Translations under genes and position numbers: made by a program
Assembly (NCBI GenBank): GCA_964589825.1
Contig: CAZPUS010000005.1
Location: 46,018-110,017 of the forward strand
Origin: an uncultured Fibrobacterota bacterium
GTDB lineage: Bacteria > Fibrobacterota > Chitinivibrionia > Chitinivibrionales > WJKA01
Direction: 5' to 3'
DNA length: 64,000 bases
Shown: in pieces, positions 4,179 to 48,267 of the stretch
How the letters are laid out: each line of letters begins with the position of its first letter
Position numbering within the stretch: position 1 is the stretch's first letter
Notes under the pieces: generated by a model
Databases searched by the model: none
Told to the model about the DNA's origin: nothing
Seen by the model: only the letters and a program-made list of their open reading frames with translations

Positions 4179-4261
4179 TGATGCATATGTAAAAATGCAA
4201 TCCGCTCAAAAAATAGTTCGTGCATCCTCCGTGATGTGACGTATGACAAAAGGAAGAGCCT

Positions 4262-4480: not shown

Positions 4481-4752
4481 GTCAGCAGCCATAGTGTCGG
4501 CAACGGGCGTGCCGATGGTATGCAAATTGTAAAAAAAAGGGGGGTATCCGGTTTTTAACATACTATACAGGGCTTTTGGGATGACGGATATCCAGGGCCC
4601 TTGTATCCGGCAGGGAAAGATGTTCGACTGTTGTCGTTATATCGGACACATGTGCGAAGTGGGAATTACGGTGTGCGCGGTTTTCCGTGCACTGTTGGGC
4701 TCAGGGGTATCACACGTCTTTCGTTATTCGGATATCGGGAACGTGCAGAAAT

Positions 4753-4782
4753 AAAAAAACCCGGTGACCGTTGATCACCGGG
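4753..4782 (-). terminator. rho-independent terminator downstream of gnd
   Basis: On the minus strand: CCCGGTGA-tcaacgg-TCACCGGG (8-bp stem) followed directly by TTTTTTT. Sits 43 nt after the gnd stop. Confidence 0.7.
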
Positions 4783-4824: not shown

Positions 4825-6279
<1,455 letters not shown>

Positions 6280-6371
6280 AATATACTCCTTTCAACATGA
6301 GTAAATAGCTATGCCTTTACCGGGCTATTGCATGTGCTGAACCCACTGTAGTTCGTATCATTTCGGTGGTT

Positions 6372-6403
6372 ACAAAAACCATAAGCCAACCGGAGCGATC
6401 GGC
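6372..6403 (-). terminator. possible terminator / palindromic hairpin after the LarA-like gene
   Basis: Minus strand: GCCGATCG-ctc-CGGTTGGC (8 bp, including two G.T pairs), then TTATGGTTTTTG. The T-run is 6 nt from the stem, so this is weak. A member of the CAACC/GGTTG hairpin set. Confidence 0.35.
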
Positions 6404-6474
6404 TTTTCATAATCGAGAACAACACAATATTACGGTCCACAGCGGAATCCATACTCATAATCTCCCGCATCAGG

Positions 6475-7752
6475 CTATATAAATTTATTCGCATCTGTCC
6501 AGAGTCCGAGGCCGGGGTTCGATATAAAGTATATCTCTTCTCCGTCCGGCATAGTATTGTAGCCCTGGGTAAGTGTTTCAGGATTGTACTTTTCCATCAT
6601 GGTATCGACCGGCTGCCAGGCATAATTGACCGACTCGATTTCTTTCCGGCTGATGTGACGGGTACAGTAGGTTATCGAGAAGCGGTCTTCGCTCGATCCA
6701 TGGATAAGATGTGCGGCTGCGCTCAGATTGTTTTGCAGTTCAGGATTATCTTTTACCGCTTTCTGTACAAAAGGGGTACCGCGATAGCCGTATTTGCGGA
6801 TGAGACGGTCGATCTCTTCATCTTCACCGAATTGGGTGAGTCCGGGGGCGAGGATAATTAGTTCTCCCTTATCCGCAAGTGCCATTCGGGTACGATAGAT
6901 GCTTTTATTACCAAGCCAGGTACTCTTGTATTCGGACGGGTCGAGGTAGACAACCGCTTTCTGAAGCGGCTGTGTGAGTTTTTCGATATTTACTTCTGCG
7001 CTCAGGGTTGCTGCCCGCTCAAAGCATTCGATGTCTGTGCCGATATAGAGCCCACGGGTGGTAAGTGTGTTTTCCTCGTCAGGAGAGAGTACGGTGTGTA
7101 CATAAACGATGGGCAAATGCGACGCATAACGGTTTTCCGCATAATTGAGCACGCGTCGTACCGGGTTGTCGGCACGACCCATTATGCGTTCCATACCATA
7201 GGCTGCACCAAGGTAGTGGCTTTTGTTGATTCCCTCGCTGCCCCCGGTACCAACAAAGATGTTTTTGTTATAATTGGCCATGCCGATTACTTCATGCGGC
7301 ACTACCTGTCCTATGGAAAGGATGAGATCATAGTCGTTGTCCACAAGCATGGAATCGATCTGAGCCGGCCATGAAAAGTCGACGCATCCGTGGGAGGCCT
7401 GCCGTACGAAGTCGGCTGGCACCTCACCGAGAGTGGTAACGCCGTGGCGCCAGTCGTGGTAGCGGATTCGCTGACGCGGCAGATTACCGAACATATGTGC
7501 AATTTCCTCCTCACCCATCTCCTTATGCGTTCCGAGTGCGGGAAGGATGTCAGTAAGACGGTCACCGTAATAGTCATGGGCGAAACGCGTGAGTTCTCCT
7601 GCGCGTGAGTGCGCTCTGGTGGAGTCGGGCGGGACCACACACACCCGGTTGCGTTCTCCCAGTGCATCGAGTGCCTGGTACAATCCGCTGCGAAGATCCT
7701 CGGCAGTCAGTACGGCATGTGTCGATCCTGTCTCAAATAGTAATGTGCTCAT
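6475..7752 (-). CDS. LarA-like (lactate racemase N-terminal domain / DUF2088) family protein
   Basis: 425 aa. Central block ILSIGQVVPHEVIGMANYNKNIFVGTGG resembles the LarA-family ..PH..G..GG.K motif region. The specific function cannot be read from sequence. Confidence 0.65.
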   Translation of the reverse strand: MSTLLFETGSTHAVLTAEDLRSGLYQALDALGERNRVCVVPPDSTRAHSRAGELTRFAHDYYGDRLTDILPALGTHKEMGEEEIAHMFGNLPRQRIRYHDWRHGVTTLGEVPADFVRQASHGCVDFSWPAQIDSMLVDNDYDLILSIGQVVPHEVIGMANYNKNIFVGTGGSEGINKSHYLGAAYGMERIMGRADNPVRRVLNYAENRYASHLPIVYVHTVLSPDEENTLTTRGLYIGTDIECFERAATLSAEVNIEKLTQPLQKAVVYLDPSEYKSTWLGNKSIYRTRMALADKGELIILAPGLTQFGEDEEIDRLIRKYGYRGTPFVQKAVKDNPELQNNLSAAAHLIHGSSEDRFSITYCTRHISRKEIESVNYAWQPVDTMMEKYNPETLTQGYNTMPDGEEIYFISNPGLGLWTDANKFI

Positions 7753-10870: not shown

Positions 10871-10945
10871 TGGCAGTCCCGAGGGGGATCGAACCCCTGT
10901 TGCAGGAATGAAAATCCTGAGTCCTAACCACTGGACGACGGGACC
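10871..10945 (-). tRNA. tRNA-Glu (anticodon UUC), CCA encoded
   Basis: The minus strand reads GGTCCCGTCGTCCAGTGGTTAGGACTCAGGATTTTCATTCCTGCAACAGGGGTTCGATCCCCCTCGGGACTGCCA. It has a 7-bp acceptor stem (one G.U pair), anticodon stem CAGGA/TCCTG with loop TTTTCAT (anticodon TTC), a T-arm AGGGG-TTCGATC-CCCCT, and a 3' GCCA. Confidence 0.93.
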
Positions 10946-14452: not shown

Positions 14453-15142
14453 TTACGAGAAATTTTCCGGATCGGTACGTTTCTTGTAAAAAGCGTCGAT
14501 CATACGAATCGCTTCGACGGGGTCATCTATCTGATTGATGAGCGACATATCGTCGTCCGCGATATAGTCGTGCGCCAGCATCGTGGTGCGGATCCACTCG
14601 ACCAGCCCTTTCCAGTACTCGCTTCCCATAAGCACGAGCGGCAGATTTTCGGTTTTGTGTGTCTGGATGAGTGTGAGTGTCTCGAAAAGCTCGTCGAGCG
14701 TGCCAAAGCCGCCCGGCATCACGATCACCGCTGCGGTATATTTTAAAAACATGACTTTGCGGATGAAAAAATAGCGAAAGTCGAGTCGTTGGGTAATGTA
14801 GGGATTGGGTTCCTGCTCGTGTGGCAGCTGGATGTTAAGGCCGATGGATACCCCACCCGCTTCGTGTGCACCTTTGTTCGCCGCTTCCATAAGTCCCGGT
14901 CCGCCGCCGGTGATTACGTTGAACCCATTCTGCACCGCGTTGCGTGCGGTTTGTTCAGTGAGTGCATAGTAACGGTGGTTATCGCGCTCACGGGCGGAGC
15001 CGAAGATGGTCACACACGGTCCATAGCGATATAGTTTTTCGAACGACTCGATAAATTCTGCCATAATGCGGAATACACGCCACGATTCTTCATACGGAAA
15101 ACGCTTTGCATTGTGGGTTGTATCGTTTTGTGGTGCACCCAT
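14453..15142 (-). CDS. LOG-family (TIGR00730) nucleotide 5'-monophosphate phosphoribohydrolase
   Basis: 229 aa. Signature motifs GGGPGLMEA and PGGFGTLDELFE. Confidence 0.9.
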   Translation of the reverse strand: MGAPQNDTTHNAKRFPYEESWRVFRIMAEFIESFEKLYRYGPCVTIFGSARERDNHRYYALTEQTARNAVQNGFNVITGGGPGLMEAANKGAHEAGGVSIGLNIQLPHEQEPNPYITQRLDFRYFFIRKVMFLKYTAAVIVMPGGFGTLDELFETLTLIQTHKTENLPLVLMGSEYWKGLVEWIRTTMLAHDYIADDDMSLINQIDDPVEAIRMIDAFYKKRTDPENFS

Positions 15143-15351
15143 GGGGCAGGCCTTTCTGTGAATTTTGATAGATACGACACGTCATTTCCGATGCGGATGT
15201 CGGTGCGGGACACACCTAAAAAAAACCGCACTGCGGGGCACGTATCATTAGTTCCATCCGTGCCTGAATACGCAAAAACGGTCGCAATACCGGCACGGCA
15301 TTATTTTTACTGATATACTGCCAGAGCACAGCCGGCGTTATTCCCTGTTTT

Positions 15352-17388: not shown

Positions 17389-17573
17389 CCGTAGCTTCCC
17401 GCGATTATCTTACCTTTTCTGGTACGGATATCACCTTTTCCCATACAAGATCCTTTCGAAAATGGTTAACGCAGTATATATCCGCCGTGTGCGGATATGG
17501 TTGTTTCAGTGTTTGGGCGTAATCTATGCAAATAGTTACGTATGTTCCACGAATCTGTTCGTATCGGGCATCA

Positions 17574-22444: not shown

Positions 22445-22592
22445 CGGCCCATTCTTTCCATATGACCCGGGGCATCGGAGGAAAGGAGCACGTTTTTTAC
22501 ATTATTTTTTTTTGCCGAAAATACGGGTAATGACATTGCCGGCGAATTGAAAAGAAACAGGATGCCATTGATATTGATTCGTATGGCTGTTA

Positions 22593-22620
22593 CCTAAATT
22601 GATCGGCTTTGTTCGCGAAA
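22593..22620 (+). repeat. short copy of the intergenic motif (M5)
   Basis: CCTAAATTGATCGGCTTTGTTCGCGAAA matches 21 of 28 positions of the copy at 39573-39600 (read on the minus strand). It is followed by hairpin CGCGA-(17 nt)-TCGCG and then TTTGC. Lies ~150 nt downstream of a plus-strand gene. Confidence 0.55.
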
Positions 22621-22741
22621 TTTGGAGCCATCCCCTCGCGTTTGCATCCGCAAAAAAAGAACCTGTGAACAACGTCGACCCATTATTTCCGGGAATGCAA
22701 TCATCGTAGGGCTTACCGCATTGTTCATATAAACTTTGCGG

Positions 22742-23698
22742 TCAGCTTGAGTGAGTAGTATCTGCCAGCGAATCCCTGAATTCATAAAACGTGGTATTAT
22801 CGGTATACAGGGCGAATACCCGTTCGAACTCGTCTGTATCCTCAAAGCCTACCTTTGCAGCGATCTCGGCAGCCATGGTTTTGGGATGGATGTAAAGGTG
22901 ATGTTTTGCCCGATTAATTCTGACATGGTTGATGAACTCTTCTATAGACATACCGAGTTCTTTTTGGAAAAGACTCTGTAGAAACGCTTCGCCGGTGACG
23001 AGGTCCTGGCAAACGATTTTTGGCGTAAGATGAGGCAGGTAATAAAGTTTTTCGATATATTTACAGGCTTTCTGTACTTCCTTGTCCATTATCGAAAGGC
23101 GCATTCGGGTAAGAAATCGCTGCTTATCCCTCGTGTCATGAAAGAACGCGATGGTTGCCCAAATAAGCCCTGCACAAATGAGCAGGATGGCAATATGAAT
23201 GATATGCGTTCTAAGCCATGAAAATACCGTGTGCAGATGGAGGAATCGTCCCACGCGTACAATAAAGCTGAGGTTTTTGGTGGTATCTCGCTGGGTGTCC
23301 GCTGCATAGAATGTGTCGGTAAAGGTCGCTGCATGTGCAGAATCCTCACGGGCCGCAGAATCTGCGGTTGTTTTTGTGAGCGATTCTTTTGTCATATGCG
23401 AATCGGATACTGCGGCAGTGGAATCGTCGATAGCACTATCCCGGATAGTAGTATCAAACGTATCCTTATCCGTCGGGACAGTCGGTTCGGTCAGACTGTC
23501 GAGTAGATTATCGACCGAGTTCTGTATGAGCGAATCGGAAATCGTGACCGTTGTATCCGACTTGACAACGGAGGAATCAACCGTCGAATCTGACTGCGGC
23601 GGTTCCGCCCATGCGGATGAACCCACAAACAGAAAAAACGATATCAAAAATGGGAAAAAACCCCGCGCTGCAGCGTTAAGTAGTGAAACTGGTCGCAT
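22742..23698 (-). CDS. membrane-anchored AraC-family transcriptional regulator
   Basis: C-terminal AraC HTH (..EEFINHVRINRAKHHLY..AAEIAAKVGFEDTDEFERVF). A transmembrane segment (IIHIAILLICAGLIWATIAFF) precedes it. The start is set at MRPVSLLNAAARGFFPFLISFFLFVGSSAWA (signal-like); the track's Met at 23839 adds 47 non-hydrophobic residues. Confidence 0.7.
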   Translation of the reverse strand: MRPVSLLNAAARGFFPFLISFFLFVGSSAWAEPPQSDSTVDSSVVKSDTTVTISDSLIQNSVDNLLDSLTEPTVPTDKDTFDTTIRDSAIDDSTAAVSDSHMTKESLTKTTADSAAREDSAHAATFTDTFYAADTQRDTTKNLSFIVRVGRFLHLHTVFSWLRTHIIHIAILLICAGLIWATIAFFHDTRDKQRFLTRMRLSIMDKEVQKACKYIEKLYYLPHLTPKIVCQDLVTGEAFLQSLFQKELGMSIEEFINHVRINRAKHHLYIHPKTMAAEIAAKVGFEDTDEFERVFALYTDNTTFYEFRDSLADTTHSS

Positions 23699-24037
23699 AA
23701 TTCCAAATATACTACCTGCGCGGGACTCTATCATAAAGCGCGCGTACGATGGTATTTTATTCGAATCGGTAAGAGAGCCATTCAATTGAAATTCACACCG
23801 CGTGATATGGTATGCGACATCGGTTGCATCCTTCACCACTGCGGTGTTTTCGAAAATCGGGAGCTGCAGAGGTGAGCGCAGCCGGAATTTATCAAAAACA
23901 CAACCGCATAACGGTCCGGTGAAGAGTCTATCGAAATAATCGATCGATTCAGGTGCAAAGAGAACAACGAGGGTTGTATTTTATCGAGTGTAGTGATAAT
24001 GAACCGTAAATACGTAACAACAACAAGGAGAAGTAAT

Positions 24038-26858: not shown

Positions 26859-27671
26859 TCACTTTAGTCTGGAGAGGTAATTTTCGACCTGGGTGACGTA
26901 AGGAGAGTTAGGAAAGCGGGTAAGGAAATTCTTGAATTTGTTTTTGGCTTCGTTTGTATGCCCCATCTGGTAGAGTGCACGCGCGATCTGGAAGTGGGCG
27001 TCGTCTTTTTTTTCGAAATTTGAAACGTCCTTTACTTTTTTGAATGACGCGATAGCCTGCGCATACTCACCCTGTGCGTAATAACACTCACCAATCCAGT
27101 AACGGGATTTATGCGAATACATGCTTTCCGGATATTTCGAGATAACCTCTGAGAAGATATGGCGAGATTTTTTGTAGTCACCTTTGTCAAAGGTCGTCAG
27201 CCCCTGGTTGTAAAGAAAGTAGGCATCAGAGGGATTAAGAATGCTGTAAGCTGAGGTAGGGGAAAAAGAAGGAGGGGCCTTTGGCGTTTGTTGCGTTTTT
27301 TTCTGCGGAGCACTTCGGGGCATTTGCTTGAGTGTAGTTACCTGTGCCTGCAGATCCTTAATCGCTTCCACTATGAGCGAAAGCTGTACCTCGAGCTCCT
27401 CGATTTTGGCGATCGATACCCGTGAGGCCTTTTCGTTTATATGATTAAGCCGGTGATCGATTTCGGCGAGTTTGCTGTTAAGATTGTCCGTTTTGAGTTT
27501 GGCTTCCTGCGCTATGCGAAGCGCCTTGTTCGAATTCTCCTTGACCTGTACTACATCTACCTGCGGAAGCAGGGGGTCCTGGGTGGAATTCATCTTAGAG
27601 GCAGGACCGGCACATCCGGCGAACACGACCGATGCAAGCGCGAGAGCTGAACATAATTTCATACAGACCAC
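26859..27671 (-). CDS. YbgF/CpoB-like Tol-Pal-associated TPR protein
   Basis: 270 aa. Lipoprotein-type signal (..SVVFAGC), a coiled-coil segment, then C-terminal TPR blocks (YYAQGEYAQAIASFKKV.., FLTRFPNSPYV..). Confidence 0.7.
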   Translation of the reverse strand: MVCMKLCSALALASVVFAGCAGPASKMNSTQDPLLPQVDVVQVKENSNKALRIAQEAKLKTDNLNSKLAEIDHRLNHINEKASRVSIAKIEELEVQLSLIVEAIKDLQAQVTTLKQMPRSAPQKKTQQTPKAPPSFSPTSAYSILNPSDAYFLYNQGLTTFDKGDYKKSRHIFSEVISKYPESMYSHKSRYWIGECYYAQGEYAQAIASFKKVKDVSNFEKKDDAHFQIARALYQMGHTNEAKNKFKNFLTRFPNSPYVTQVENYLSRLK

Positions 27672-27764
27672 TTTCCGTAAAAGAAAAAATGAATGTTATC
27701 GTAACCTGAATTGATAATTTTAGTTGCGGCATCTGTTGCAATCCGCACTATTCTAAATAGTCTC

Positions 27765-27870
27765 TAAAATCATGAGGCAACCAACAAGGTTGCCCCATAA
27801 TTGTTGAGAACACAGTAGCAGCACGGCTCATCGCAGCTTTTATCGAAACAACCGCTCAATTCAAACATAA
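27765..27870 (-). repeat. full-length copy 1 of the intergenic element (motif + spacer + ATTATGGGG + hairpin + CTCATGATTT)
   Basis: Colinear with 45722-45822 (opposite orientation). By hand count, 60 of 75 positions are identical between GAT and TGA. Contains hairpin GGCAACC-ttgtt-GGTTGCC (27776-27794). Confidence 0.85.
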
Positions 27871-28127: not shown

Positions 28128-30689
28128 ATGATATTATATCGATACGTCCTTAAAAAACATTTCCCCCCGTTTATCTATTCTATCGCGATTATTCTCTTTA
28201 TTTCGATTGTCAATTATGCGGTACGAATACTGGATAAAATAATCAGCAAGGGGCTCGAACCGGGCGTGGTGCTCGAGATTTTTCTGGTCAATCTCGGATG
28301 GATGGTTGCACTGGCAGTACCTATGGCCACGCTTACCGCCACACTTATGGCGTTTGGCAGTATGTCTGCGGACAACGAGATGGCGGCGATACGGGCTTCG
28401 GGGATTCCTCTTTACAAGCTGTTGATTGCTCCGCTTTCCGCTTCGAGTGTGCTGTGTGTGTTGCTGATTTTTTTTAACAATCTTATTCTGCCCGACGCGA
28501 ACCACAGAACCGCAAGCCTGATGTCCGATATTTCACGAAAGCACCCGGCTGCATTTATCGAGCCCAAGGTACTTATCGATGAGTTCAGCGATTATGGACT
28601 GTATGTCGAGCGGGTAAAAAGCAAAACCGGGCGGCTCTACGGGATCAAGGTTTTCTCTCAGCAAAAGGGAGGACGGTATACCACAACAGTCGCCGATTCG
28701 GGAGAAATCATTCAGACACATAACGGCAGGTTCCTCAGGCTCACCCTCTTTCACGGCGCATCGCATCAGCTCGGCGGTAAAGAGCCCGGGGAGTATATCG
28801 TCAGTTCGTTCAACGAGCAGATCCTGGTGATAAAAAACAAGGATACAAAACTGCAGCGGCGCGACCGCAGTCATCGAAGCGACAGGGAAAAAAGCTCCGA
28901 AGCAATGCTGAGGGATGTAAAACGCTACACCGAAAAAAAACGGCATACGGTAAGCCAGTACAATGCATTTCTCGATTCTCTTCAGCGCAGCGTGACGCGA
29001 TGGGATTCGCTTTACCGTGTTACGCCTTTTAGTCCGGATACGGCTATCCACCGCTCCGATTCTACATTTATGCAGTGGCGTGCCGGTATCGTCACCGCGC
29101 AGCAGATGGAAACGCGGCTGACACACATGCAAAAAAAGGTGCAACGGTATGCCCGTACCATTACCAGGTATGAGAAAAACAGTGCCAAATATATGGTCGA
29201 GGTGCATAAGAAGTTTTCAATACCGTTTGCCTGTATCGTATTTGTGCTGATAGGATCTCCCCTGGGGATAATGGCGCGAAGGGGCGGTATCGCGGTAGGA
29301 GCGAGCTACAGCATACTTTTTTTTATTATCTACTGGGCTCTGTTGATACAGGGGGAGAAACTGGCGGACGAGCTGGTTATTTCCCCGTTTCTTGCAATGT
29401 GGAGTGGTAACATCCTGATCGGCGCGTGTGCATTGGTTCTTGTGTCACGACTGGGCCGACGCCGCATGAGTATTTCCTTTGCTCCGCTCCTGGAGACGCT
29501 TCGTTCATGGGCTGCGCGTCTGCATCGGAATCCGGTTATTCGCGCCATGATATTTATTGCATCGCTTCCCGTAAAGGGATGCTTTTTATTTTTGCTGTTG
29601 TTTCGCAGAATTTCCGGCATCCTTCCGCTTTACATCATACGATTATTTCTTGGGTATGTTATCGGGATAACCGTGGCGATTATAGTCGTATTTGTCACCG
29701 TCGATTACGTATCGAATTCGGGGTTGTTCAGCGAGGCGGGTACCGGGGATATCGCCAGGTACTATCTCTACTACATGCCGTGGATTCTTCCCATGATATT
29801 TCCGGTTATCAATCTTCTCGCGTCGATGGCCGTAGTGGGTAAACTTGTCGGAAGACGTGAGATCGATGCAATGCGCGCATCGGGAATCAGCGTCGTTCGT
29901 GCGTTCAGTCCGTTGCTGCTTGTGGGGCTGCTTTTCACTGGAGGAACGTTTCTTACCCGTGAAGCACTTCTTCCCCAGGCAAACATGAAACGGGAGGTGC
30001 TCAAATCCAGGCTCAAGGGGCACGGCGAACGGATGGCGGGGCGTCATAACCGGAGGGATTTTTATTATTTTGCTAATGACAGTACGGTTTACTTCTTTGA
30101 AAGACTCCGTGGATCCCGCAACAGCGGCCGCAAGGTGTGGGGGCAGTATTTTACCAAATCGAACCGCATGCGAAAATTCGTGCAGGCGGAAAAAGCGTCC
30201 TGGCGGGACAGCAGCTGGTATCTTTATAATGGTGTAGTGCGCTATGTAAGGCCTCAATCCGATTCTTTCGCGCAGTTCGATACTTTGAAAGATGTTGCAC
30301 TCGATGTATCCGCACGAAAAATGGCGACTACCATATCGTCACCGCTTGAGCGCAGCTACTGGGAGCTGCATGAGTATATCCAGCGTGCAAAACGACGAGG
30401 AGAAGAGATTCAGGAGTATCTTGCGGAGCTGCACTTCAAAATGGCATTCCCGTTCATGAATTTTATCGTGATATTACTTGGCGTTTCGATTGCGGCACGT
30501 ATCGGGAGAAGGGGCGGAGCCGTGCTGTTCGGCATCGGCATTTTCGTGAGTTTTTTTTACTGGATGGGTGCACGATTTGTGCTCGAATTCGGCAAAAACG
30601 GCTACATCTCACCGATTCTCGGCGCGTGGATAGGTAATGTAATATTTTTTGTAATTGGGATATGGCTTTATGCAACAACCGACAGATAA
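28128..30689 (+). CDS. fused LptF-LptG-type (YjgP/YjgQ) lipopolysaccharide export permease
   Basis: 853 aa. The N-terminal half starts with the family-typical MILYRYVLKKHFPPFIYSIAIILFI... A second permease module starts near LPLYIIRLFLGYVIGITVAIIVVF... Each half has the 3+3 TM arrangement around a large periplasmic insert. Confidence 0.85.
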   Translation: MILYRYVLKKHFPPFIYSIAIILFISIVNYAVRILDKIISKGLEPGVVLEIFLVNLGWMVALAVPMATLTATLMAFGSMSADNEMAAIRASGIPLYKLLIAPLSASSVLCVLLIFFNNLILPDANHRTASLMSDISRKHPAAFIEPKVLIDEFSDYGLYVERVKSKTGRLYGIKVFSQQKGGRYTTTVADSGEIIQTHNGRFLRLTLFHGASHQLGGKEPGEYIVSSFNEQILVIKNKDTKLQRRDRSHRSDREKSSEAMLRDVKRYTEKKRHTVSQYNAFLDSLQRSVTRWDSLYRVTPFSPDTAIHRSDSTFMQWRAGIVTAQQMETRLTHMQKKVQRYARTITRYEKNSAKYMVEVHKKFSIPFACIVFVLIGSPLGIMARRGGIAVGASYSILFFIIYWALLIQGEKLADELVISPFLAMWSGNILIGACALVLVSRLGRRRMSISFAPLLETLRSWAARLHRNPVIRAMIFIASLPVKGCFLFLLLFRRISGILPLYIIRLFLGYVIGITVAIIVVFVTVDYVSNSGLFSEAGTGDIARYYLYYMPWILPMIFPVINLLASMAVVGKLVGRREIDAMRASGISVVRAFSPLLLVGLLFTGGTFLTREALLPQANMKREVLKSRLKGHGERMAGRHNRRDFYYFANDSTVYFFERLRGSRNSGRKVWGQYFTKSNRMRKFVQAEKASWRDSSWYLYNGVVRYVRPQSDSFAQFDTLKDVALDVSARKMATTISSPLERSYWELHEYIQRAKRRGEEIQEYLAELHFKMAFPFMNFIVILLGVSIAARIGRRGGAVLFGIGIFVSFFYWMGARFVLEFGKNGYISPILGAWIGNVIFFVIGIWLYATTDR

Positions 30690-32860: not shown

Positions 32861-32971
32861 TACAAACCAGAAAGATCAGGTATGCATTCAAAAGACTCCC
32901 CTCACACGCAGGATCGGTGCTTTATATCGACATACGTATGCATGCGAAATCCAGACAACGGATGCCGCAGC

Positions 32972-34774
32972 ATGCTGCGTAAAGAGAAGACACGACCCTT
33001 GCGGGGTGATGAGATCGATACACTGCAGCGTCAGGGTAATATGGCGTATGATTGGGAATTGATACGGGTAACCGACGGTTTTTTACCGGACAATATTTAT
33101 GCCAACCGGTTTACCTCGTGGTGCATACTGGGGCGATTCGACGAATTGGTCGATTCCGCCGAGGTGCCCGTACTTTCAGCCGGCATATATCATTCGGTGA
33201 TTGGAGAATGTGAAGTCGGTGATAACGCACTGGTGGCATTCTGCAGACATGCATGGCGCTATATTGTTTATCCCGGTGCGTGTGTGTACGATGTCGGCGC
33301 CCTCGTGTGCGGCACCTCCACCCAGGCCGCAAACGGATTGACAGTACACGTGGGCCCGGAAACAGGGCAGAGAAGCTGCGGTATAGATATGGATATGTCC
33401 TTTGACGATGTGCTGCAGTGCATATATCGTGATTCGTGCGGGGGTACGGGAGAAGAGAATGGGATACCGGCAACCGATTTCGGAGTGATAGACTCCTGCA
33501 GCACTATTGTACGCACATCCCGTGTGCATAATTGCTGTATTGGTAAGCATGTTACCATACGGGATGTGCAGAGTGTGAGTGAATCGAGTGCCAAAGGAAG
33601 TGAAGATCGACCGGTACTGGTTGCCGACGGAGCATTTGTAGAGCGATCCTGTCTGCAGGCCGGCTGCGAAGTATCATCCATGGCACATGTAAGCCGTTCG
33701 CTACTGTGTGCCGGTGCAGGTGCGTCACGTCACGGCAAAATCATGGAAAGCATTGTAGCGGGACCGACGCATGTGGAAGAAGGCGAAGTGACCGCGTCGC
33801 TTCTGGGGCCTGCAGTTGGATTTCATCACCAGGCGTTGTGTATCTCGGTGTTGTGGCCGGGAGGAAAAGGAAATGTCGGCTATGGCGCCAATGTCGGATC
33901 GAACCATACCGGGCGTGTTGCCGATCAGGAACTTCGTGCAGGTGACGGTCTCTTTTTCGGCCTTGGCGTAAACATAAAATACCCTGCCGATTTTTCATCC
34001 GCGCACTGGTCGATCATTGCAACCGGCGTGACCACGCTGCCGCAGAAAATGACGTTTCCGTTTTCTCTCATCTCGATGCCCCGTTTCAACGATGACGACA
34101 TACCGCCCGCGTATAATCAGCTGAGCCCCGCCTGGGTACTGCAGCACAATGTATACGGAGTGCTTCGCAATGAATACAAATTGAAAAAACGACTAATGGA
34201 TACACAGCAGTCGATGCATTCCCCGCTTTTTACCGTACGTGTGCTGCAGGATATGAATGCAGCGGCAGATTCGCTTGACCGATTCCTTGACAGGCATAAC
34301 ATAGAGAACCGTGTGTACGATGACCGGAATATCGACGGGGCCGGGAAAAACAGTGTTCAGCATTCGCATATCGAGCCTGCCCGGAATGCCTACCGCAGAG
34401 TCGTAGACTATGTGCTTTTGCGTCAGTGGGTGCAAATGCTGCAGCATGAAGATAAGGACAAATGCAGTATGCAGGAGGCTGCAAAAGCGTTCGATCAGCT
34501 GAGGCAAGAGTATAGTACGACCACGCTTGTGGCTCGCATCGACCAGTTGCGCACGCGCAGTGTGGATGTCCGTATGGAGTTTCTCGTTGACCTCGATCAG
34601 CAGATCTACCAGGCGGCGCGCGCTTCAAAACAGCGAGATTACGTGCGCGGCAATGCAGTGTTTGCCGATTACGAGCGGATATACGGTGGTATCGAAGATG
34701 ATGCGCTTTTGGGAGAAATCAAAGCAGAACAGAAGCAAAGGAAGGCGTTCGTTACACGGTGTCTTGACAGATAA
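32972..34774 (+). CDS. DUF4954-like protein (left-handed beta-helix-like repeats), function unknown
   Basis: About 600 aa. The N-terminal pattern LRGDEIDTLQRQGNMAYDWELIRVTDGF and the middle block GYGANVGSNHTGRVADQELRAGDGLFFGLGVNIKYPADF match my memory of the DUF4954 family. Start set at Met 32972; the track's Met at 32882 is possible. Confidence 0.6.
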   Translation: MLRKEKTRPLRGDEIDTLQRQGNMAYDWELIRVTDGFLPDNIYANRFTSWCILGRFDELVDSAEVPVLSAGIYHSVIGECEVGDNALVAFCRHAWRYIVYPGACVYDVGALVCGTSTQAANGLTVHVGPETGQRSCGIDMDMSFDDVLQCIYRDSCGGTGEENGIPATDFGVIDSCSTIVRTSRVHNCCIGKHVTIRDVQSVSESSAKGSEDRPVLVADGAFVERSCLQAGCEVSSMAHVSRSLLCAGAGASRHGKIMESIVAGPTHVEEGEVTASLLGPAVGFHHQALCISVLWPGGKGNVGYGANVGSNHTGRVADQELRAGDGLFFGLGVNIKYPADFSSAHWSIIATGVTTLPQKMTFPFSLISMPRFNDDDIPPAYNQLSPAWVLQHNVYGVLRNEYKLKKRLMDTQQSMHSPLFTVRVLQDMNAAADSLDRFLDRHNIENRVYDDRNIDGAGKNSVQHSHIEPARNAYRRVVDYVLLRQWVQMLQHEDKDKCSMQEAAKAFDQLRQEYSTTTLVARIDQLRTRSVDVRMEFLVDLDQQIYQAARASKQRDYVRGNAVFADYERIYGGIEDDALLGEIKAEQKQRKAFVTRCLDR

Positions 34775-34898
34775 GGTAATACCGATCAGTTTTTTTTGTC
34801 CCCATATTCTGAATCTGAACCCCGGGCTTTTGTGTGTTTCAAATATGCTGTCGTTCTTACAGCCGTTGTGTCCCCGAGAACAATCGAGCGGTTTACGC

Positions 34899-36803
34899 TC
34901 AAGAAGATATCTTAGCTGAGACAAAGGTACGGGCAACAAAGCCGGCCCATACAAGCCCTTTCAGGATTGCAAGACACAGGGCAAAATATGCGGTTCCCAG
35001 AAGTGGGATGAACACCACGCTCGTAAGCGACATGCCGAAAATGCCGCCAAAGAGATCCGCTGCATAACAGTGATGGGTGTTTGAACCTTCAAGGGAGACG
35101 AATTGGGCCGCGCTGAGTATTCCAATGCCTGTATGAAGAATAAAAAAGAGCCATACCGGAGGAAAAGAGAGGCTGAGAAGAAAAAGAAGGGCAGCGGCGC
35201 TGTACAGGGCAATAAAGATATCGCCATGCGTACGCATTCGTAATCGACTTCCGATAACAAAGCCCAGGGTAAGTGCCAGCATCAGAAGCGAGATGTACGA
35301 GTAGAGATTGCCGTAATACGACTGGTACAGCAGCATGAGCGCGACCGAAAATGCGCCGGTGGTAAACCCGCTGGTCGAAATAGAAAGCGAGGTGCGGTTT
35401 TTAGGCAGCAGCAGGAATGCGGCCGCGACAAAAAACGCGCCAAGTAATGCAAGAAAGAATGCGGATAGCGGGAAGTGCTCCAGCCATCGTTGCGCAGAGA
35501 GGGTAAGGGCAATCGGTTTTTGTACCGTATTGATGGCAGAGGTGTCGGAAATGGCATTTACCTCTCTTATCCGTTGCGGTGTAACCGCGGAAAGGATATA
35601 ATGTTCGAGGTATCTGGTCGGTACCGATATGGAAATACTCTCTTTCAGCGCAAAAGTCGATGCGGTAAATGTATAGCCGTTTCCGGGATAGACGAAAAGA
35701 TCGGAAAACATGGTGTCAAGGGTTGTATAGACCGTGGTAAAAAGCTGTCGGGAGCTGGCGCTCATATAATTCGTATTGAACGACAGGGTGACACTTAAAA
35801 GTGAGGAGTCGGACATCATCTTTTTGCATCGGGTATAGAACGAGCGGGTAAAATAGCGATTCGACCCGGCATTGTAGGGGATATCCGTTGCCAGCAGGAT
35901 ACAGTCGTACTTTTTTTCGCAGCAGTAGCGGGAGACTGTACCGGTCACCATACCCGAATCGGCCAGCAGCGGTTCGGACTCGATGCAATCGATCTCGAGC
36001 CCGGGATACTTTGTAAGCTCACGGCGATGGTGTCGATCGTGCACCAGCAGCACCCGTTTGGCATGTGGCAGAAATGAGAGTGGAATATGTACCGACTGCT
36101 CGATCGAGGGGAGTACGATATTCGATCGATAGAGGTGATTGTTTACCAGCAGGGAGGTATCGGTACCGGAAATAATGAATGCAATTTCACCCTGATGTCC
36201 GTACCGTACGACGTCGGGTTCTGACTGATATTTCCAGTTCCGGCTTTGGGGATCGATAAAAAGAAACAGCGCACACGCAACAAGGCTGATACCCAGGAAA
36301 AGCCTGCGTGTGCTAATTGTAAAAATATAGGGAAGCAGACACACGACAAGCAGCAATGCATTGGGAATAAAGGAAAGAACTCCACCAAAGACGATCAGGG
36401 ATCCAGCCATATTTCCTGCATTTTCTATCCCGTATACCCCACGCCGCGGCGTGGACAGGGAGATCGTGCCAAAAAGATACCCGGAGAAAAACGCAAAAGG
36501 GCTCTGGGTAAGTACGATAAACGCGGTAATCGTAAGAGGGGAAAGCATCTCGCCCGGACCGCTCAAAAGCCGTACCCCGCGTATACTTATACAGCCGTAG
36601 AGTGCTGATACCACAAGCAGTAGTACAATGAATTCGATGCTTTTTTTGTGGTGCGCACGTGCACTGCGACTGCCAATGCCACTGCATAAAAGCCATAACC
36701 CGAGTATGAGCCCGATAACGAGCTCATTTCCGTGGAAAATGCCGAGGAACTCTCTGATAAATATGCATTGAATACCGGCGGCGCCGATGCCGCCGGCGAG
36801 CAT
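34899..36803 (-). CDS. polytopic membrane protein with a central spermidine-synthase-like (degenerate) domain
   Basis: Has the architecture of 'fused MFS/spermidine synthase' proteins: ~8 N-terminal TMs, a soluble middle region, and C-terminal TMs. The usual GGGDG SAM-binding loop reads LLVHDRHHRR here. The start is placed at Met 36803, 10 nt after the upstream stop; the track's Met at 36881 would overlap by 68 nt. Confidence 0.6.
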   Translation of the reverse strand: MLAGGIGAAGIQCIFIREFLGIFHGNELVIGLILGLWLLCSGIGSRSARAHHKKSIEFIVLLLVVSALYGCISIRGVRLLSGPGEMLSPLTITAFIVLTQSPFAFFSGYLFGTISLSTPRRGVYGIENAGNMAGSLIVFGGVLSFIPNALLLVVCLLPYIFTISTRRLFLGISLVACALFLFIDPQSRNWKYQSEPDVVRYGHQGEIAFIISGTDTSLLVNNHLYRSNIVLPSIEQSVHIPLSFLPHAKRVLLVHDRHHRRELTKYPGLEIDCIESEPLLADSGMVTGTVSRYCCEKKYDCILLATDIPYNAGSNRYFTRSFYTRCKKMMSDSSLLSVTLSFNTNYMSASSRQLFTTVYTTLDTMFSDLFVYPGNGYTFTASTFALKESISISVPTRYLEHYILSAVTPQRIREVNAISDTSAINTVQKPIALTLSAQRWLEHFPLSAFFLALLGAFFVAAAFLLLPKNRTSLSISTSGFTTGAFSVALMLLYQSYYGNLYSYISLLMLALTLGFVIGSRLRMRTHGDIFIALYSAAALLFLLSLSFPPVWLFFILHTGIGILSAAQFVSLEGSNTHHCYAADLFGGIFGMSLTSVVFIPLLGTAYFALCLAILKGLVWAGFVARTFVSAKISS

Positions 36804-36813
36804 ATACCGCAGT

Positions 36814-38331
36814 CTATTTCCCCGACTCGCTGAAATGGATGACGCGGTAGCGTTGGATGTCTGCGGTTTTCCACGCGTCACGGGGCAGGCCTGCCTTGTG
36901 AGAGAGATTGCGGAGGAATTCTTTTTTATCGTTGAGTTGTTCCCATACCTGAGGAAGGTAGGTCGATCGATGCATTCCGCGGGAAAGGATGATGCCGTCT
37001 TTGCCTTTGACTATTTTGTCAAGCAGGTCTTTCGCATCGCGGTACTCTATCGGTTCGGGTTTCGTGAGCACTGAAATCTCGATGGAAATACCATCCAGCT
37101 CCGCTTTGGTTACAGGAGAAAACCGGTGGTCATTAAAGGCGGCGTGCTGCGCGTTCTCTTTTATTGCCTGGAAGATCGGCTTGACCGGTTGTATATTTCC
37201 GATACATCCTCTCAAAGCACCCTGTGAAGTAAGTGTCACAAAGCACCCCCGCGCTTTTTTGAGCTCCTGCGGTGCATCGTCGCATGAAGGAGGTGATTCG
37301 TCTCTGAGCGATGCGGCGATACTTTGACGCGCGAGTCGCAGCATATACTGCTTTGCGCTGTCTGAAAACGACATCGGTTCATCGGGTGTGTGTGCCGAGC
37401 CGTTTACCTCCTCGGAAGAAAAATTATCAGAATGGGCAACGGCCGAAGCGGTGTTCGCACCCCGTTGTTCAGGACAGTAGATGATGCTGGTATAGCCTAC
37501 GACCCTGTCTTTGGGGGCGTATTCGGGTGCCGCATCGTGAGAGTTTAATGCCGCACGCATTATGGGCTGAAGATTGAGTTGCCCGGCAAGATGGATAAGC
37601 ACTTTTATTCCGGTTTCGCCACACGCCTCTATCGAGGCATCGGTATTACCGGAAAGGATCGCTTCGATGCTCTGCGAGTCTATTCGATTTGCCTCTTCAT
37701 AACTGTGAAAATGAGACAGGTCGGATGAGGCCACGACAACGGTACGCTCGTCGATATACGGTTTAATGAGCCGGGCGACCTTTTCGGCCGGTGCATCACG
37801 CATGAGCATAGGAATAAAAGTGAACTCGTCGAGGCGCATTTGCAGAAACGGAAGCTGTACCTCGATACTGTGCTCCTGCGCATGTGCGTTCGGTGAGGAA
37901 GAGACGAGCGGATCGTTGCGCAGTTGCGAAATAACATCTTTGTCGAGTGAGACGTTACCCAGTGGCGTATGATACGCATCGACGTCAGGGATGGAAATGC
38001 CGTCAACCGGATAGTGATGTGCAGGCCCGAGAATGAATACACGCCTGATTCCCGGCTCGAGAGCGGCATATCCGAGTGCCGCGAGCTCTCCGGAGAAAGG
38101 ATAACCGGCATGCGGACTCAAAAGCAGTGTGGGACTGCATGGCGCCTCTTTCGCCTTTTCAAATGCGGAAGAGATAAACTCACGGACCTCTTTTGGATTC
38201 GAGGAATAAAATTGACCCGCTACTGCGGGTTTACGGATATCTTCTGCTTCGGTTCCATTGCAATGAAACAAACCCATAACACATACTCCTGCTATAATCC
38301 TTGAAATATACAACCGCAGGCGCGCAGCCAT
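36814..38331 (-). CDS. AmmeMemoRadiSam system fusion protein: MEMO1-family (protein B) + AMMECR1 (protein A)
   Basis: 505 aa. The Memo-like N-half has AGQFY, SPHAGYPFSG and ILGPAHH. The AMMECR1 C-half has GALRGCIGNI and STYLPQVWEQ. The N-terminus looks like a signal/lipoprotein peptide (IIAGVCVMGLFHC). Confidence 0.85.
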   Translation of the reverse strand: MAARLRLYISRIIAGVCVMGLFHCNGTEAEDIRKPAVAGQFYSSNPKEVREFISSAFEKAKEAPCSPTLLLSPHAGYPFSGELAALGYAALEPGIRRVFILGPAHHYPVDGISIPDVDAYHTPLGNVSLDKDVISQLRNDPLVSSSPNAHAQEHSIEVQLPFLQMRLDEFTFIPMLMRDAPAEKVARLIKPYIDERTVVVASSDLSHFHSYEEANRIDSQSIEAILSGNTDASIEACGETGIKVLIHLAGQLNLQPIMRAALNSHDAAPEYAPKDRVVGYTSIIYCPEQRGANTASAVAHSDNFSSEEVNGSAHTPDEPMSFSDSAKQYMLRLARQSIAASLRDESPPSCDDAPQELKKARGCFVTLTSQGALRGCIGNIQPVKPIFQAIKENAQHAAFNDHRFSPVTKAELDGISIEISVLTKPEPIEYRDAKDLLDKIVKGKDGIILSRGMHRSTYLPQVWEQLNDKKEFLRNLSHKAGLPRDAWKTADIQRYRVIHFSESGK

Positions 38332-38335
38332 TGTA

Positions 38336-39487
38336 TTAGCCTTTCGATTCCCAGAGTCCTTCTATTGTATGTCCGCAGAATGAACATCTGCCGTCTTTGA
38401 TTTTTGTGTGTTCTATGCGATAACCGCGTCGTGCAATAACAATGCGACCGCAGCCGGGACAGCGTGTATTGCTGTCGGCTCCCGGGACATTTCCGAGATA
38501 GACATAGTGCAGGCCCTTTTGCTGTGCCTGTTGTCTGGCTTTGTGCAGTACATCCGCAGGTGTGGGAGCAAGATTGCGAAGCTTGTAGGAAGGGTAAAAT
38601 CGTGAAAAATGAAGAGGGGTGTGCGCCCCGATACTGGTATGCAGCCATTCGCACATGCGCGAGATGGTTGAAAGATCATCGGTCCATCCCGGAATTACGA
38701 GGTTGGTAATTTCGACCCAGATTCCCATCTCAGCGGCGTGCGCTATCGTTTCAAGTATGGGATCCCGTTTTCCGGCATTGAGCTTTTGGTAGACCGCAGG
38801 GTCGAAGCTTTTAAGGTCGATATTAGCCGCATCGATAAAGGGGGAGAGTTGTTCGAGCGGTTTTCGGTTTATAAAACCGCAGGTAACGAGGATGTTTCGA
38901 AGGCCTTTTTGATGAGCGAGTCGTGCGGTATCGTACATGTATTCATACCATACGGTCGGCTCCGAATAGGTGTAGGCGATCGCATCGCATCGTTGACGCA
39001 GCGCGTGCTCAACCGCCTGCTGCGGGCTGAGATTCGTGTTGCGGGTTTGACGCGGACTTTTCTGGCTTATGGACCAGTTCTGACAATTTTTACAGCGGAA
39101 ATTGCATCCTGCAATGGCCAGCGAATAGACACGGCTGCCCGGCAGCACGTGATAAAGCGGTTTTTTTTCTACAGGGTCCACATGGATGGCACACGGGTTG
39201 GCATAGCCATAGGTAGAGAGTACCCCGTCTTTATTGGTTCGTACCCTGCAGGTGCTTATTTGGCCGGGTGCGAGTATGCAGCCGTGAGGGCATAATCCGC
39301 ACTGTACGGTGTTACCCTCTCGTGCAATTTCGAACATAGCTTTATGAAGCGGGGGCTCTGCGCAAAAGCCTGAAACGGGCAGCGCACTTATACCCGCGGA
39401 TGCACAAAGTGAGCACAGCAGCTCCCTGCGTGTAATCGAGTCGGTTATCATGCCAGAAAAATAATAGGTTCCTTGCCGAAAACGCAT
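38336..39487 (-). CDS. AmmeMemoRadiSam system radical SAM enzyme
   Basis: 383 aa. Radical SAM cluster motif AGCNFRCKNC, a PFL-activase-like fold, and 4 nt to the downstream Memo/AMMECR1 gene. The N-terminus carries a Tat-like SITRRELL + hydrophobic segment. Confidence 0.85.
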   Translation of the reverse strand: MRFRQGTYYFSGMITDSITRRELLCSLCASAGISALPVSGFCAEPPLHKAMFEIAREGNTVQCGLCPHGCILAPGQISTCRVRTNKDGVLSTYGYANPCAIHVDPVEKKPLYHVLPGSRVYSLAIAGCNFRCKNCQNWSISQKSPRQTRNTNLSPQQAVEHALRQRCDAIAYTYSEPTVWYEYMYDTARLAHQKGLRNILVTCGFINRKPLEQLSPFIDAANIDLKSFDPAVYQKLNAGKRDPILETIAHAAEMGIWVEITNLVIPGWTDDLSTISRMCEWLHTSIGAHTPLHFSRFYPSYKLRNLAPTPADVLHKARQQAQQKGLHYVYLGNVPGADSNTRCPGCGRIVIARRGYRIEHTKIKDGRCSFCGHTIEGLWESKG

Positions 39488-39530: not shown

Positions 39531-39578
39531 AGCAAAATGAAGCTACAGATGACTTTTTTCATATAGCAGCTTTCATCA
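39531..39578 (-). terminator. probable terminator of the 39760-40980 gene, built partly from the repeat motif
   Basis: Minus strand: ATGAAAGCTGC-(19 nt)-GTAGCTTCAT (10 pairs, one bulged A, one G.T) followed by TTTTG. The 5' arm is the 3' end of motif copy M2. Confidence 0.5.
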
Positions 39579-39600
39579 AAACAACCGCTCAATTTAGGCC
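39566..39600 (-). repeat. short copy of the intergenic motif (M2)
   Basis: The minus strand reads GGCCTAAATTGAGCGGTTGTTTTGATGAAAGCTGC, near-identical to the 5' ends of the copies at 27835-27868 and 45937-45969. Confidence 0.8.
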
Positions 39601-39759
39601 TTAATTTAGAGATCCCCGGGACAAAAAGGATATACCTTCGGTATGAAGCTAATGCAAATATTTTCATCCAACCAAATTATTGATGATGAGAAAAAACCGT
39701 CATTCTACGAAGGTACTACCCGTGTGAAACAGATCGTCTTGATACAAGGATAGCCGATA

Positions 39760-40980
39760 CTATCGTTGCGTATGTATCGGAAATAAACGTCCGTGGATGT
39801 CAAACGTTCTCTTCCCAGGTCCTTTTAAAAAGATTCCATGCTCCGGAGAAAACTGCTTATGTATCACAGATCGGGAGGATGATCTTTTCGTTGTGCCCAT
39901 ATTAATGGAGTGCGCGCGGACTGGTGACCCGTTGAGATCGGTGATAGTAACATCCCCGAATGTCGCATCTACATGATGTGACAGAAGTGCGGGGCCTCCA
40001 CTGCGGAGGGCATATTCGCTTTTTTGAGTTTTTTCCCAGTTCCAGTTTGATGGTTCGCTTTCTGCATCCTTCCAGATTTTAAAGCTATATTTCGTCACTC
40101 CCTTACTACCCTCGTCCGGAAGAGTTTCAGCACGAAGGCGCATTTTTAGCCATGTGTCCAGTTGTAAATCAAATGATCCGTAACAACTTTGTGAATTTCC
40201 GGCACCATGGTAATGACAAATTTCCGGATCTGCCGACCATCCGTCTTTCCATCGCAGCCACCCAATACACCCGAATGGCAAATACCCCCATTTCGGTTGA
40301 TCATCGGGCCAGTCTTTAAAGCCTCCGACAGCGTGTCCGGCAAACCGCATAAGGATACCGAGCCCGTTGGGCCCGCTTTTGCTTGAAGTGCTTTGATCTA
40401 CAGAATGAATTATTACCTTTGCGGTAATATCATAATCTTCCCAGTTTGTATTTCCGATCAGAAAGATTCTGTCATAACCCGTTCGTTCATTTAACAGCCC
40501 TTCATTTGTCAATGCCCATTTACCATCTACATACTGTCCCACATTCTGGGGGTTATCAACCTTTGACCAGTCTATTTTCATGGGGAATGTCTGATTCCCG
40601 GATAATTTGGTAATAGTCATTGATTTTGTTTTTACATTATCGTTTTTATCGATCGCGGTAATCGTCACCGTATTCGATCCATCTTGCAGGCTTTCTATGG
40701 CGATGTCTGCGTTAAAATCGCCGTCTTCTGCAAGACGGCGGTAAGCTTCGTACGAAAGAGCGACTTCGGAATCGCCGTTGACGCTGTAAGAAAGTGACGC
40801 AATGTCGTGATAGGGGCTTACATGGCCCATGACATTGAAATCAGGTTGGGCCGGTCCGAGATGCCCTACCTTCTGTTCGCTGCCGTGCCAGATATCGATT
40901 GTTAACGCGAGGCAGGAGGGCGGGAATATGAAGAATACTGCAGAGATGAGGAAAAGGATGCACAAGATACGATATAACAT
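39760..40980 (-). CDS. secreted hypothetical protein (Ig-like N-domain plus possible concanavalin-A-like lectin/glucanase fold)
   Basis: 406 aa with an N-terminal signal peptide (LYRILCILFLISAVFFIFPPSCLA). Beta-rich and Trp/Gly-rich in the centre (..GWLRWKDGWSADPE..). The fold call is weak. G+C is markedly lower than in the neighbours (45/120 in a hand-counted sample vs 73/120 in tkt). Confidence 0.55.
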   Translation of the reverse strand: MLYRILCILFLISAVFFIFPPSCLALTIDIWHGSEQKVGHLGPAQPDFNVMGHVSPYHDIASLSYSVNGDSEVALSYEAYRRLAEDGDFNADIAIESLQDGSNTVTITAIDKNDNVKTKSMTITKLSGNQTFPMKIDWSKVDNPQNVGQYVDGKWALTNEGLLNERTGYDRIFLIGNTNWEDYDITAKVIIHSVDQSTSSKSGPNGLGILMRFAGHAVGGFKDWPDDQPKWGYLPFGCIGWLRWKDGWSADPEICHYHGAGNSQSCYGSFDLQLDTWLKMRLRAETLPDEGSKGVTKYSFKIWKDAESEPSNWNWEKTQKSEYALRSGGPALLSHHVDATFGDVTITDLNGSPVRAHSINMGTTKRSSSRSVIHKQFSPEHGIFLKGPGKRTFDIHGRLFPIHTQR

Positions 40981-45611: not shown

Positions 45612-45721
45612 GGTATGGTGACTCCTTTTGAAAGATGGCATGGTCTGCGGACGCATCGTGTACAATTGTCCGGCCGCAGGCAGAGATATGCAATAAACGC
45701 AGTAGGTAAATATAAAAAAAA

Positions 45722-45822
45722 GCACCTAAACCGAAAATAGTTTTGATGAAAGCTGCGGTGAGTGGTGCTGCTATTGTGAATTCGAAAATTATGGGGCGAT
45801 CATGTTGGTCGGCTCATGATTT
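45722..45822 (+). repeat. full-length copy 2 of the intergenic element
   Basis: See 27765-27870. The 5' motif core is divergent and 1 nt shorter here (CCTAAACCGAAAATAGTTTTGATGAAAGCTGC). Hairpin CGATCA-tgt-TGGTCG lies at 45797-45811. Confidence 0.85.
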
Positions 45823-45936
45823 CCGGGGACGCAGGCGCAGTGGGGATTGCAGCAGATTACGCGAAAAAAGCGCTCAGTTTAGGTAGCAGTTCTGTGGTGT
45901 TTTTATCCCTGCAACGAAGTAAGCGCGATGCGATAT

Positions 45937-45969
45937 GCAGCGTTTATCAAGACAACCGCTCAATTCAGG
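45937..45969 (-). repeat. short copy of the intergenic motif (M3)
   Basis: The minus strand reads CCTGAATTGAGCGGTTGTCTTGATAAACGCTGC (29 of 33 identical to M2 by hand count). A more degenerate copy lies at 45861-45887 (CTAAACTGAGCGCTTTTTTCGC). Confidence 0.8.
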
Positions 45970-46017
45970 TAAAAAACGATTCGTCGGGATGCAGGTGTAT
46001 CGCCAATGAAGGAACAT

Positions 46018-48032: not shown

Positions 48033-48267
48033 ACAACACTCCTTATATTATAAAAAAAACGTGTCTTTTATCCAATATAAAATTATCACAATACAATAGC
48101 AAGTATTATTTTAATTTCGCGTAAACCCGAACCGAGCGATTTTGTGTGCGAAATCCGTCGCCATTCGCACTGCAAGTGCATTCCCGCAAATAATGAGGTC
48201 GCCGTAAGTGTTGCTCCATCATCTTCGGGAACGCAATAAACGTACGACTCGTCGCATCTTTCGCCCA

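Follow-up and report, generated by a model that had tools for sequence, protein, structure and literature searches.

A conserved intergenic motif marks the ends of a dispersed, palindromic, MITE-like repeat in a Fibrobacterota genome

Within a 64,000-nt stretch of DNA from an uncultured member of the Fibrobacterota (the window), a motif of about 30 nt that an initial annotation had placed just downstream of genes is the terminal inverted repeat (ACCTRAAYTGAKCGG...) of a dispersed intergenic repeat, an imperfect palindrome of 160-173 bp. The repeat is non-coding and typically about 165 bp long. At least nine copies lie in the 64 kb, all of them intergenic and on either side of genes, with none inside a gene body. 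The best explanation, to which we assign a probability of roughly 0.7, is that this is a MITE-like repeat that was spread by a transposase acting in trans and is now decaying. It is a new repeat family of an already known sort and not a new kind of terminator or regulatory signal.

Four clear copies had been reported, at 22593 on the plus strand and at 39598, 45969 and 45883 on the minus strand. All four are present there (copies A, B, C and D, respectively) and are homologous beyond chance, as judged from E-values for the 64-kb window obtained with profile models built without the copy being tested (Table 1); for A and D this was a full-length model of three other copies. An nhmmer profile of these four found three more copies, at 27865 (-), about 48123 (+) and about 23957 (-), listed as E, F and G. 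Two weaker look-alikes that had also been pointed out, at 17491-17509 and 4191-4210, gave no model match at E < 10 and are best taken as chance. The 14-mer CCTAAATTGAGCGG, allowed up to three mismatches, was not enriched over shuffled sequence (8 matches against 6.1 expected), so the signal resides in the longer similarity.

Table 1. Copies of the repeat in the window. Strand is that of the canonical orientation; E-values come from models built without the copy in question.
Copy	State	Positions	Strand	E-value	Model positions	Setting
I	degenerate; weak call	about 6319-6474	-	0.009 to 0.66	49-157	after LarA-like gene 6475-7752 (-); upstream of 6-phosphogluconate dehydrogenase gene
A	full	22592-22752	-	2.6e-15	18-163	convergent: phosphoesterase gene (+) / AraC-type gene 22742-23839 (-)
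G	full length, degenerate	23806-23958	-	6e-4 to 1.7e-3	3-159	divergent: upstream of AraC-type gene; other neighbour an ORF without Pfam match
E	full	27702-27867	-	3.3e-21		divergent: TPR lipoprotein gene 26859-27671 (-) / LptF/G gene 28128-30689 (+)
H	degenerate partial; weakest call	34808-34895	ambiguous	0.03 to 0.6		convergent, 124-nt spacer: 32882-34774 (+) / 34899-36881 (-)
B	partial, type-1 end	39566-39601	-	1.4e-3 to 6.6e-3 (full-length models)		tandem: 39760-40980 (-) / radical SAM gene, B upstream of the latter
D	full	45724-45884	+	7.4e-28		between same-strand genes, upstream of sugar ABC-transporter operon
C	partial, type-1 end plus about 30 nt	45913-45975	-	1.1e-3 to 0.065	9-71	same spacer as D
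F	full	48124-48296	-	1.6e-20		divergent: TPR gene 46965-48032 (-) / adenylosuccinate-lyase-like gene 48354-49808 (+)

In all four full copies (A, E, D and F; 161-173 bp) one end bears the motif and the opposite end its reverse complement, and the four can be aligned with one another along their entire length. An ungapped scan placed the inverted partner 159-164 nt away from the motif in D, E and F; in D the reverse complement lies 159 nt off and reads GCAGCTTTCATCAAAAC...GGTTTAGG at 45757-45725, and in E the partner reads ATCAATTCAGG at about 27704. The inverted ends are imperfect, matching at about 20-21 of 33 positions. Copy E read forward is closest to copy D reversed, which indicates an element with two distinguishable, though related, ends: type 1 reads ACCTRAATTGAGCGGTTGTTTYGATRAAAGCTGCG and type 2 reads ACCTAAAYTGAGCGNTTTTKTSGCGAAAT (...TTGAGCGGTTGTTTYGATRAAAGCTGCG and ...CTGAGCGNTTTTKTSGCGAAAT when taken from the full-length alignments), and the termini can be summarized as ACCTRAAYTGAGCGG inverted ends. 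We defined the canonical orientation as running from type 1 to type 2. When left out of the model, A, D, E and F each score far better in this orientation than in the reverse one (for copy A, 51.5 bits on the minus strand against 11.8 bits on the plus strand). At the centre of the element is a conserved hairpin, ATTATGGGGC...CTCATGATTT.

Similarity among the copies runs about 130 nt past the motif; by blastn, D and E are 70.5% identical over 146 nt (E=2.8e-21). Five copies (A, D, E, F and G) were compared in pairs and share 51-66% identity, and decay is evident in the partial copies B, C and H and in the degenerate copies G and I. Inverted motifs spaced 160-170 bp apart, homology over the full length, low identity and partial copies all fit one alternative that the initial annotation had raised, namely that the motif is the conserved end of a decaying mobile repeat; that suggestion was essentially right.

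The copies differ in how much of each end survives and in how closely they approach genes. The motif at 22593-22620 (+) is the type-2 end of copy A seen from the opposite strand. The degenerate type-1 end of the same copy, at about 22740-22752, runs into the AraC-type gene and supplies that gene's final codons (…H S S) and its TGA stop. In copy I, whose central hairpin part scores highest, the CCTGATGCGGGAG end comes directly after the TAG stop of the LarA-like gene. At A and I, insertions seem to have reached right up to, or into, gene ends. Copy E has its type-1 end, TTTGAATTGAGCGGTTGTTTCGATAAAAGCTGC, at 27865 and its type-2 end, ...ATCAATTCAGGT, at about 27704, and terminates 31 nt upstream of the listed start of the TPR lipoprotein gene (27671). 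In copy F the inverted ends read GAGCGATTTTGTGTGCGAAAT and GCGCGATTGTGTGGGCGAAAG, and 5 nt are inserted in the type-1 end. Copy G overlaps the listed GTG start of the AraC-type ORF at 23839, and copy H matches either strand, depending on the model.

Copy D is the only copy with its canonical orientation on the plus strand. Its type-2 end had been noted as a degenerate second copy of the motif at 45861-45887 (-), and its type-1 end, 45724-45757, which gives the minus-strand reading quoted above, had been missed. Copy C corresponds to the motif reported at 45937-45969 and stops within about 30 nt of copy D. We considered whether D is nested inside C; excising D in silico left the C match unextended, and thus provides no evidence for D having inserted into C.

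Copy B, the best match to the motif in the initial annotation, has a type-1 end (CCTAAATTGAGCGGTTGTTTTGATGAAAGCTGC) that is 85% identical to that of copy E over 33 nt in direct reading, and its downstream body has strongly diverged; an eroded opposite end is possible near 39468. Directly upstream of copy B, at 39599-39610 (-), the element tip is nearly duplicated: TCTAAATTAAGG precedes CCTAAATTGAGCGG, with 9 of 11 positions identical at a distance of 12 nt. It may be a slippage duplication or a remnant of the end of another copy.

Intergenic DNA makes up about 11% of the window. Of the 21 spacers that measure at least 100 bp, the repeat occupies eight (three divergent, three tandem and two convergent), and it accounts for much of the long intergenic spacers in the source genome. 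The divergent spacers, those of E, F and G, lie between gene starts and contain no gene 3' end; only A and H are convergent. The canonical strand, which is G/T-rich and the better-folding one, is the minus strand in seven of the eight copies with a callable orientation, a bias that does not reach significance (two-sided p ~0.07) and may be chance. Every 4-kb bin (1-64000) has a positive GC skew on the plus strand. No other repeat family was found in common among the intergenic spacers of the window. A weak 52-nt similarity between spacers at 4712-4763 and 15177-15228 (67% identity, E ~0.002) lies outside the element family and may be chance.

The architecture of the element matches that described for miniature inverted-repeat transposable elements: small size, terminal inverted repeats, no transposase and a long stem-loop (PMC3184786). 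Terminal inverted repeats, ACCTRAAYTGAKCG... with its reverse complement at the opposite end, are found in D, E, A and F. The full copies fall below the 200 bp that generally bounds such elements and carry no transposase gene; copy E has at least two stops in every frame and no frame is open across all copies. Nine dispersed copies in eight separate spacers are found in 64 kb of one genome. Bacterial MITEs such as Nezha, Chunjie and RUP (PMC3184786) share with the element a length of about 160-170 bp, terminal inverted repeats, the lack of a transposase or conserved ORF, dispersed intergenic copies, a long stem-loop, partial or decayed copies and restriction to one lineage. The element differs from them in that it has no detectable target-site duplication, no known parent insertion sequence with matching ends and unusually diverged copies.

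If the repeat spread as MITEs do, a transposase encoded elsewhere in the genome would bind the inverted ends and move the element by cut-and-paste into intergenic DNA, and the present copies would be old and decaying. Where the transcript of a neighbouring gene reads through a copy, the RNA can fold into a long hairpin, which may incidentally affect mRNA ends or stability, as for example at copy B, where a local stem is followed by TTTT. We searched the flanks of the four full copies for target-site duplications of 3-8 nt at offsets of up to 2 nt, and matches within copies were not above those between copies. The flanks of copy D, TGCTA and TGCTT, match at four of five positions, and some flanks read TA, inconsistently across copies; at such divergence, a target-site duplication could have eroded. 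No transposase gene was found among the Pfam-scanned ORFs of the window.

Searches beyond the window point to an element restricted to its lineage, as in many MITE families. The next-best homologues of the transporter binding protein, about 60% identical, come from Chitinispirillaceae and Chitinivibrionales, and contigs of five relatives contain no copy of the element in about 70 kb surrounding their orthologous transporter operons. Motif-pattern scans of public genome contigs returned 6 chance matches; those of public metagenome contigs returned 0 and then 34 chance matches, none of which extended. The sole match to Rfam 15 covariance models in the window, whether at gathering thresholds or at E <= 5, is a tRNA at 10874-10945, and our search of the literature on repeats in Fibrobacter or Chitinispirillum found nothing relevant. 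Low identity, together with the failure to find a target-site duplication, a transposase gene in the window or copies in relatives and public collections, means that the transposon origin is one that we infer.

The element has no sequence similarity to any repeat family searched, and its closest counterparts besides MITEs are likewise matters of architecture. With the ERIC (IRU) repeats of Enterobacteriaceae, about 127 bp long, it shares an imperfect palindrome throughout and a strictly intergenic location on either side of genes; it differs in belonging to another phylum (Fibrobacterota, Chitinispirillaceae-like), in its unrelated sequence and in its longer unit. As an RNA hairpin, ERIC exerts orientation-dependent effects on mRNA. 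ERIC-type sequences have terminal inverted repeats and fold into a long hairpin (PMC3184786). The Correia elements of Neisseria (NEMIS/CREE; about 104-157 bp) resemble the repeat in having inverted ends of about 26 nt or more and in their high density between genes, on the upstream as well as the downstream side. Correia elements reportedly contain functional promoters and a binding site for IHF (PMC3184786), whereas inspection by eye and a consensus scan identified neither in our element, whose sequence is unrelated. Movement of Correia elements between strains has been shown, whereas mobility of the present element is putative.

The two strands of the element are not equivalent when folded as RNA. 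The element forms a single, long hairpin that spans its full length (copy E, -56.8 kcal/mol, z=-5.0; copy D, -58.8 kcal/mol, z=-4.0), and in E, D, F and I the canonical strand is 15-19 kcal/mol more stable than its complement (-67.0 against -49.4 kcal/mol for F, and -44.1 against -28.3 kcal/mol for I). The canonical strand folds better because G-U pairs outnumber A-C mismatches, 59 to 31. This large difference between the strands makes it possible that the element acts as an RNA hairpin, for example through recognition by a protein or an RNase, and the strand-asymmetric hairpin is a reasonable candidate for effects of the repeat on mRNA.

Such a role is the core of an alternative reading, in which the element is a functional cis-acting RNA: a strand-specific hairpin of about 165 nt in 5' UTRs, 3' UTRs or intercistronic regions that controls the processing, stability or termination of mRNA, an effect reported for ERIC and Correia repeats, with the conserved ends and the central stem as its functional parts. 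This reading is compatible with a MITE origin, and we consider it unlikely on balance. In its favour, seven of the eight orientable copies are co-oriented with a flanking minus-strand gene, and copies persist at 34-49% divergence; divergence so high for a mobile family could instead reflect retention for function. All four full copies share two invariant G-U pairs, and neither these nor a strand-asymmetric hairpin is predicted by a double-stranded DNA recognition site. In the central stems, 87% of cells are paired compared with 82% in shuffles, a value reached by 2 of 500 shuffles, although the structure used for this test was derived from the same four sequences that were tested. The pairing pattern of the central stems is suggestive of RNA function.

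Several observations weigh against this RNA reading. The G-U excess falls mainly at positions common to the copies (12 shared columns against 5) and therefore looks inherited from the ancestor, whereas copy-specific changes are balanced (26 G-U against 19 A-C). Six central-stem pairs have changed on both sides, a point for this reading, but 55 of 500 shuffles do as well, so the count is not beyond shuffles. Arm-identity matrices gave no sign of co-evolution, with arms within a copy no more complementary than arms across copies. Copy D runs antisense to the genes on either side, copy A lacks strand asymmetry and in copy G the asymmetry is reversed. Nor does the element match an Rfam family or show conservation in the relatives searched. 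A more specific version, in which the strand-specific module of about 165 nt, with its ancestral and invariant G-U pairs, would be kept in many transcription units of this Chitinispirillaceae-like lineage to set mRNA ends or half-lives and its conserved 33-nt end would be a putative recognition site for an RNA- or DNA-binding protein, we judge to be less probable still. An RNA-level role, possibly acquired after insertion, is thus a possible secondary reading to that of a MITE-like repeat.

The leading proposal of the initial annotation was a module of about 30 nt that lies downstream of genes in the sense orientation and feeds terminators, either as a site recognized by a protein or an RNase or as a small-RNA module derived from the 3' UTR. 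We now regard this as very improbable. Each of the four copies that it listed does lie downstream of a same-strand gene, and the local stems that it described do exist: about ten pairs with one bulge and then TTTT in copy B (about 39577-39534), CGCGA/TCGCG in copy A and CTGCA/TGCAG in copy C. However, the location after genes reflects the copies that had been spotted; E, F and G lie in divergent promoter regions between gene starts, I and H add to the list, and within the window there is no preference for gene 3' ends. The motif is present on both strands of every full element, so the strand of a single motif is uninformative about sense orientation, and the similarity between copies far beyond the motif is likewise at odds with a short module. 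The variable hairpins that the module was thought to precede are mostly inner segments of the element-wide palindrome.

Intrinsic terminators consist of a G+C-rich stem-loop followed by a U-tract at the 3' end of the transcript. A stem followed by TTTT was found at copy B only, the stems in A and C being 5 pairs long without a proper T-run, and a consensus terminator scan found nothing at A, B or E. Copies may look like terminators, as they did in the initial annotation, and in this they resemble known dispersed terminator-like repeats, but they differ from these in that a T-run follows the stem in copy B alone. The element family as a whole is unlike an intrinsic terminator.

A promoter or operator, that is, a site for an alternative sigma factor or a regulator common to the downstream genes (sugar ABC transporter, radical SAM enzyme and TPR lipoproteins), is a reading to which we give hardly any weight. 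Promoters of the sigma-28 type have the consensus TAAA-N15-GCCGATAA, and those of the ECF type GAAC-N16-17-CGT. Seven copies (B, C, D, E, F, G and I) precede a gene start on one strand or the other by 30-360 nt, and the motif loosely resembles sigma-28 and ECF-type half-sites when compared by eye with these consensus sequences. By the same comparison, however, the half-site spacing is 3-4 nt too short for either type. Distances to start codons vary about 10-fold, A and H sit in convergent spacers and have no gene downstream, the genes that do lie downstream have unrelated functions, and in relatives the orthologous transporter operon is not preceded by the motif. The conserved unit is moreover about 165 bp and not a single site. 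Sigma-28, ECF, sigma-54 and Bacteroidetes -7/-33 promoters were each set aside by eye for misfits of spacing or sequence and for a unit far too long.

Equally improbable is a REP or REPIN repeat maintained by a RAYT tyrosine transposase by means of single-stranded DNA hairpins. The long-hairpin architecture with inverted modules would suit it, as would a hairpin more stable on one strand and perhaps the preponderance of minus-strand copies in DNA with positive plus-strand GC skew, although that orientation bias is not significant. REP superfamilies are defined by a GTAG or CGTC tag (PMC3733652) in a palindromic unit of 20-40 nt, which forms inverted doublets and has an associated RAYT gene; the 33-nt end module carries neither tag and is not palindromic. 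The element is also larger than a typical REPIN, and no Y1-transposase gene or domain was found in the window.

Four further candidates were rejected. Integron attC sites are imperfect palindromes of 57-141 bp with RYYYAAC / GTTRRRY cores, one per cassette ORF in a co-oriented array; the element ends in CCTAAAT.../...ATTTAGG and not in GCCTAAC/GTTAGGC, and its copies are longer, of mixed orientation and located among housekeeping genes. A lac operator or LacI-type operator shares AATTG.GAGCGG with the motif, but the motif is not palindromic at that scale. An RAT/antiterminator or riboswitch leader is ruled out by copies E, F and G, by the inverted partners and by the lack of an Rfam match. Finally, an ATG is conserved in ATTATGGGGC, but there is no common frame and stops are frequent, which excludes a conserved small ORF.

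The MITE-like repeat adds a family for the poorly studied class Chitinivibrionia of the phylum Fibrobacterota, and it could be of use as a strain-typing marker for its lineage. Because it supplies the end of the AraC-type gene and overlaps listed gene starts at G and possibly at B, the repeat has to be masked if gene prediction and motif searches are not to go astray.

The related metagenome contig ENA k141_1443243 (Chitinispirillaceae-like) carries a dispersed palindromic repeat of its own, with ends CCGCTCACCCTGAG...CTCAGTGTGAGCGG. Its copies at 5711-5838 and 15196-15338 are 78% identical over 145 nt, a further similarity joins 2994-3044 and 15109-15159, and one copy is annotated as a 66-aa gene (5655-5855). 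Apart from a common TGAGCGG heptamer, this repeat is unrelated to the element in the window.

Several genes next to copies also deserve comment. The sugar-binding protein ORF beside copy D (44337-45725, -) is listed with 462 aa and a GTG start; an identical database protein has 424 aa and starts at 45611, 38 codons downstream of the listed GTG, and with that start about 110 nt of 5' region separate copy D from the gene. The 853-aa ORF at 28128-30689 (+) has two stretches that match the LptF/LptG permease family (Pfam PF03739) and is apparently an LptF-LptG fusion. Copy B lies just upstream of the radical SAM ORF (38336-39487, -) and may overlap its listed ATG at 39487; an alternative ATG start is at 39451. 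Directly downstream of this ORF is a fused Memo and AMMECR1 ORF (36814-38331, -). The two are probably in one operon, and the region 36814-39487 (-) looks like an AmmeMemoRadiSam arrangement in which Memo and AMMECR1 are fused.
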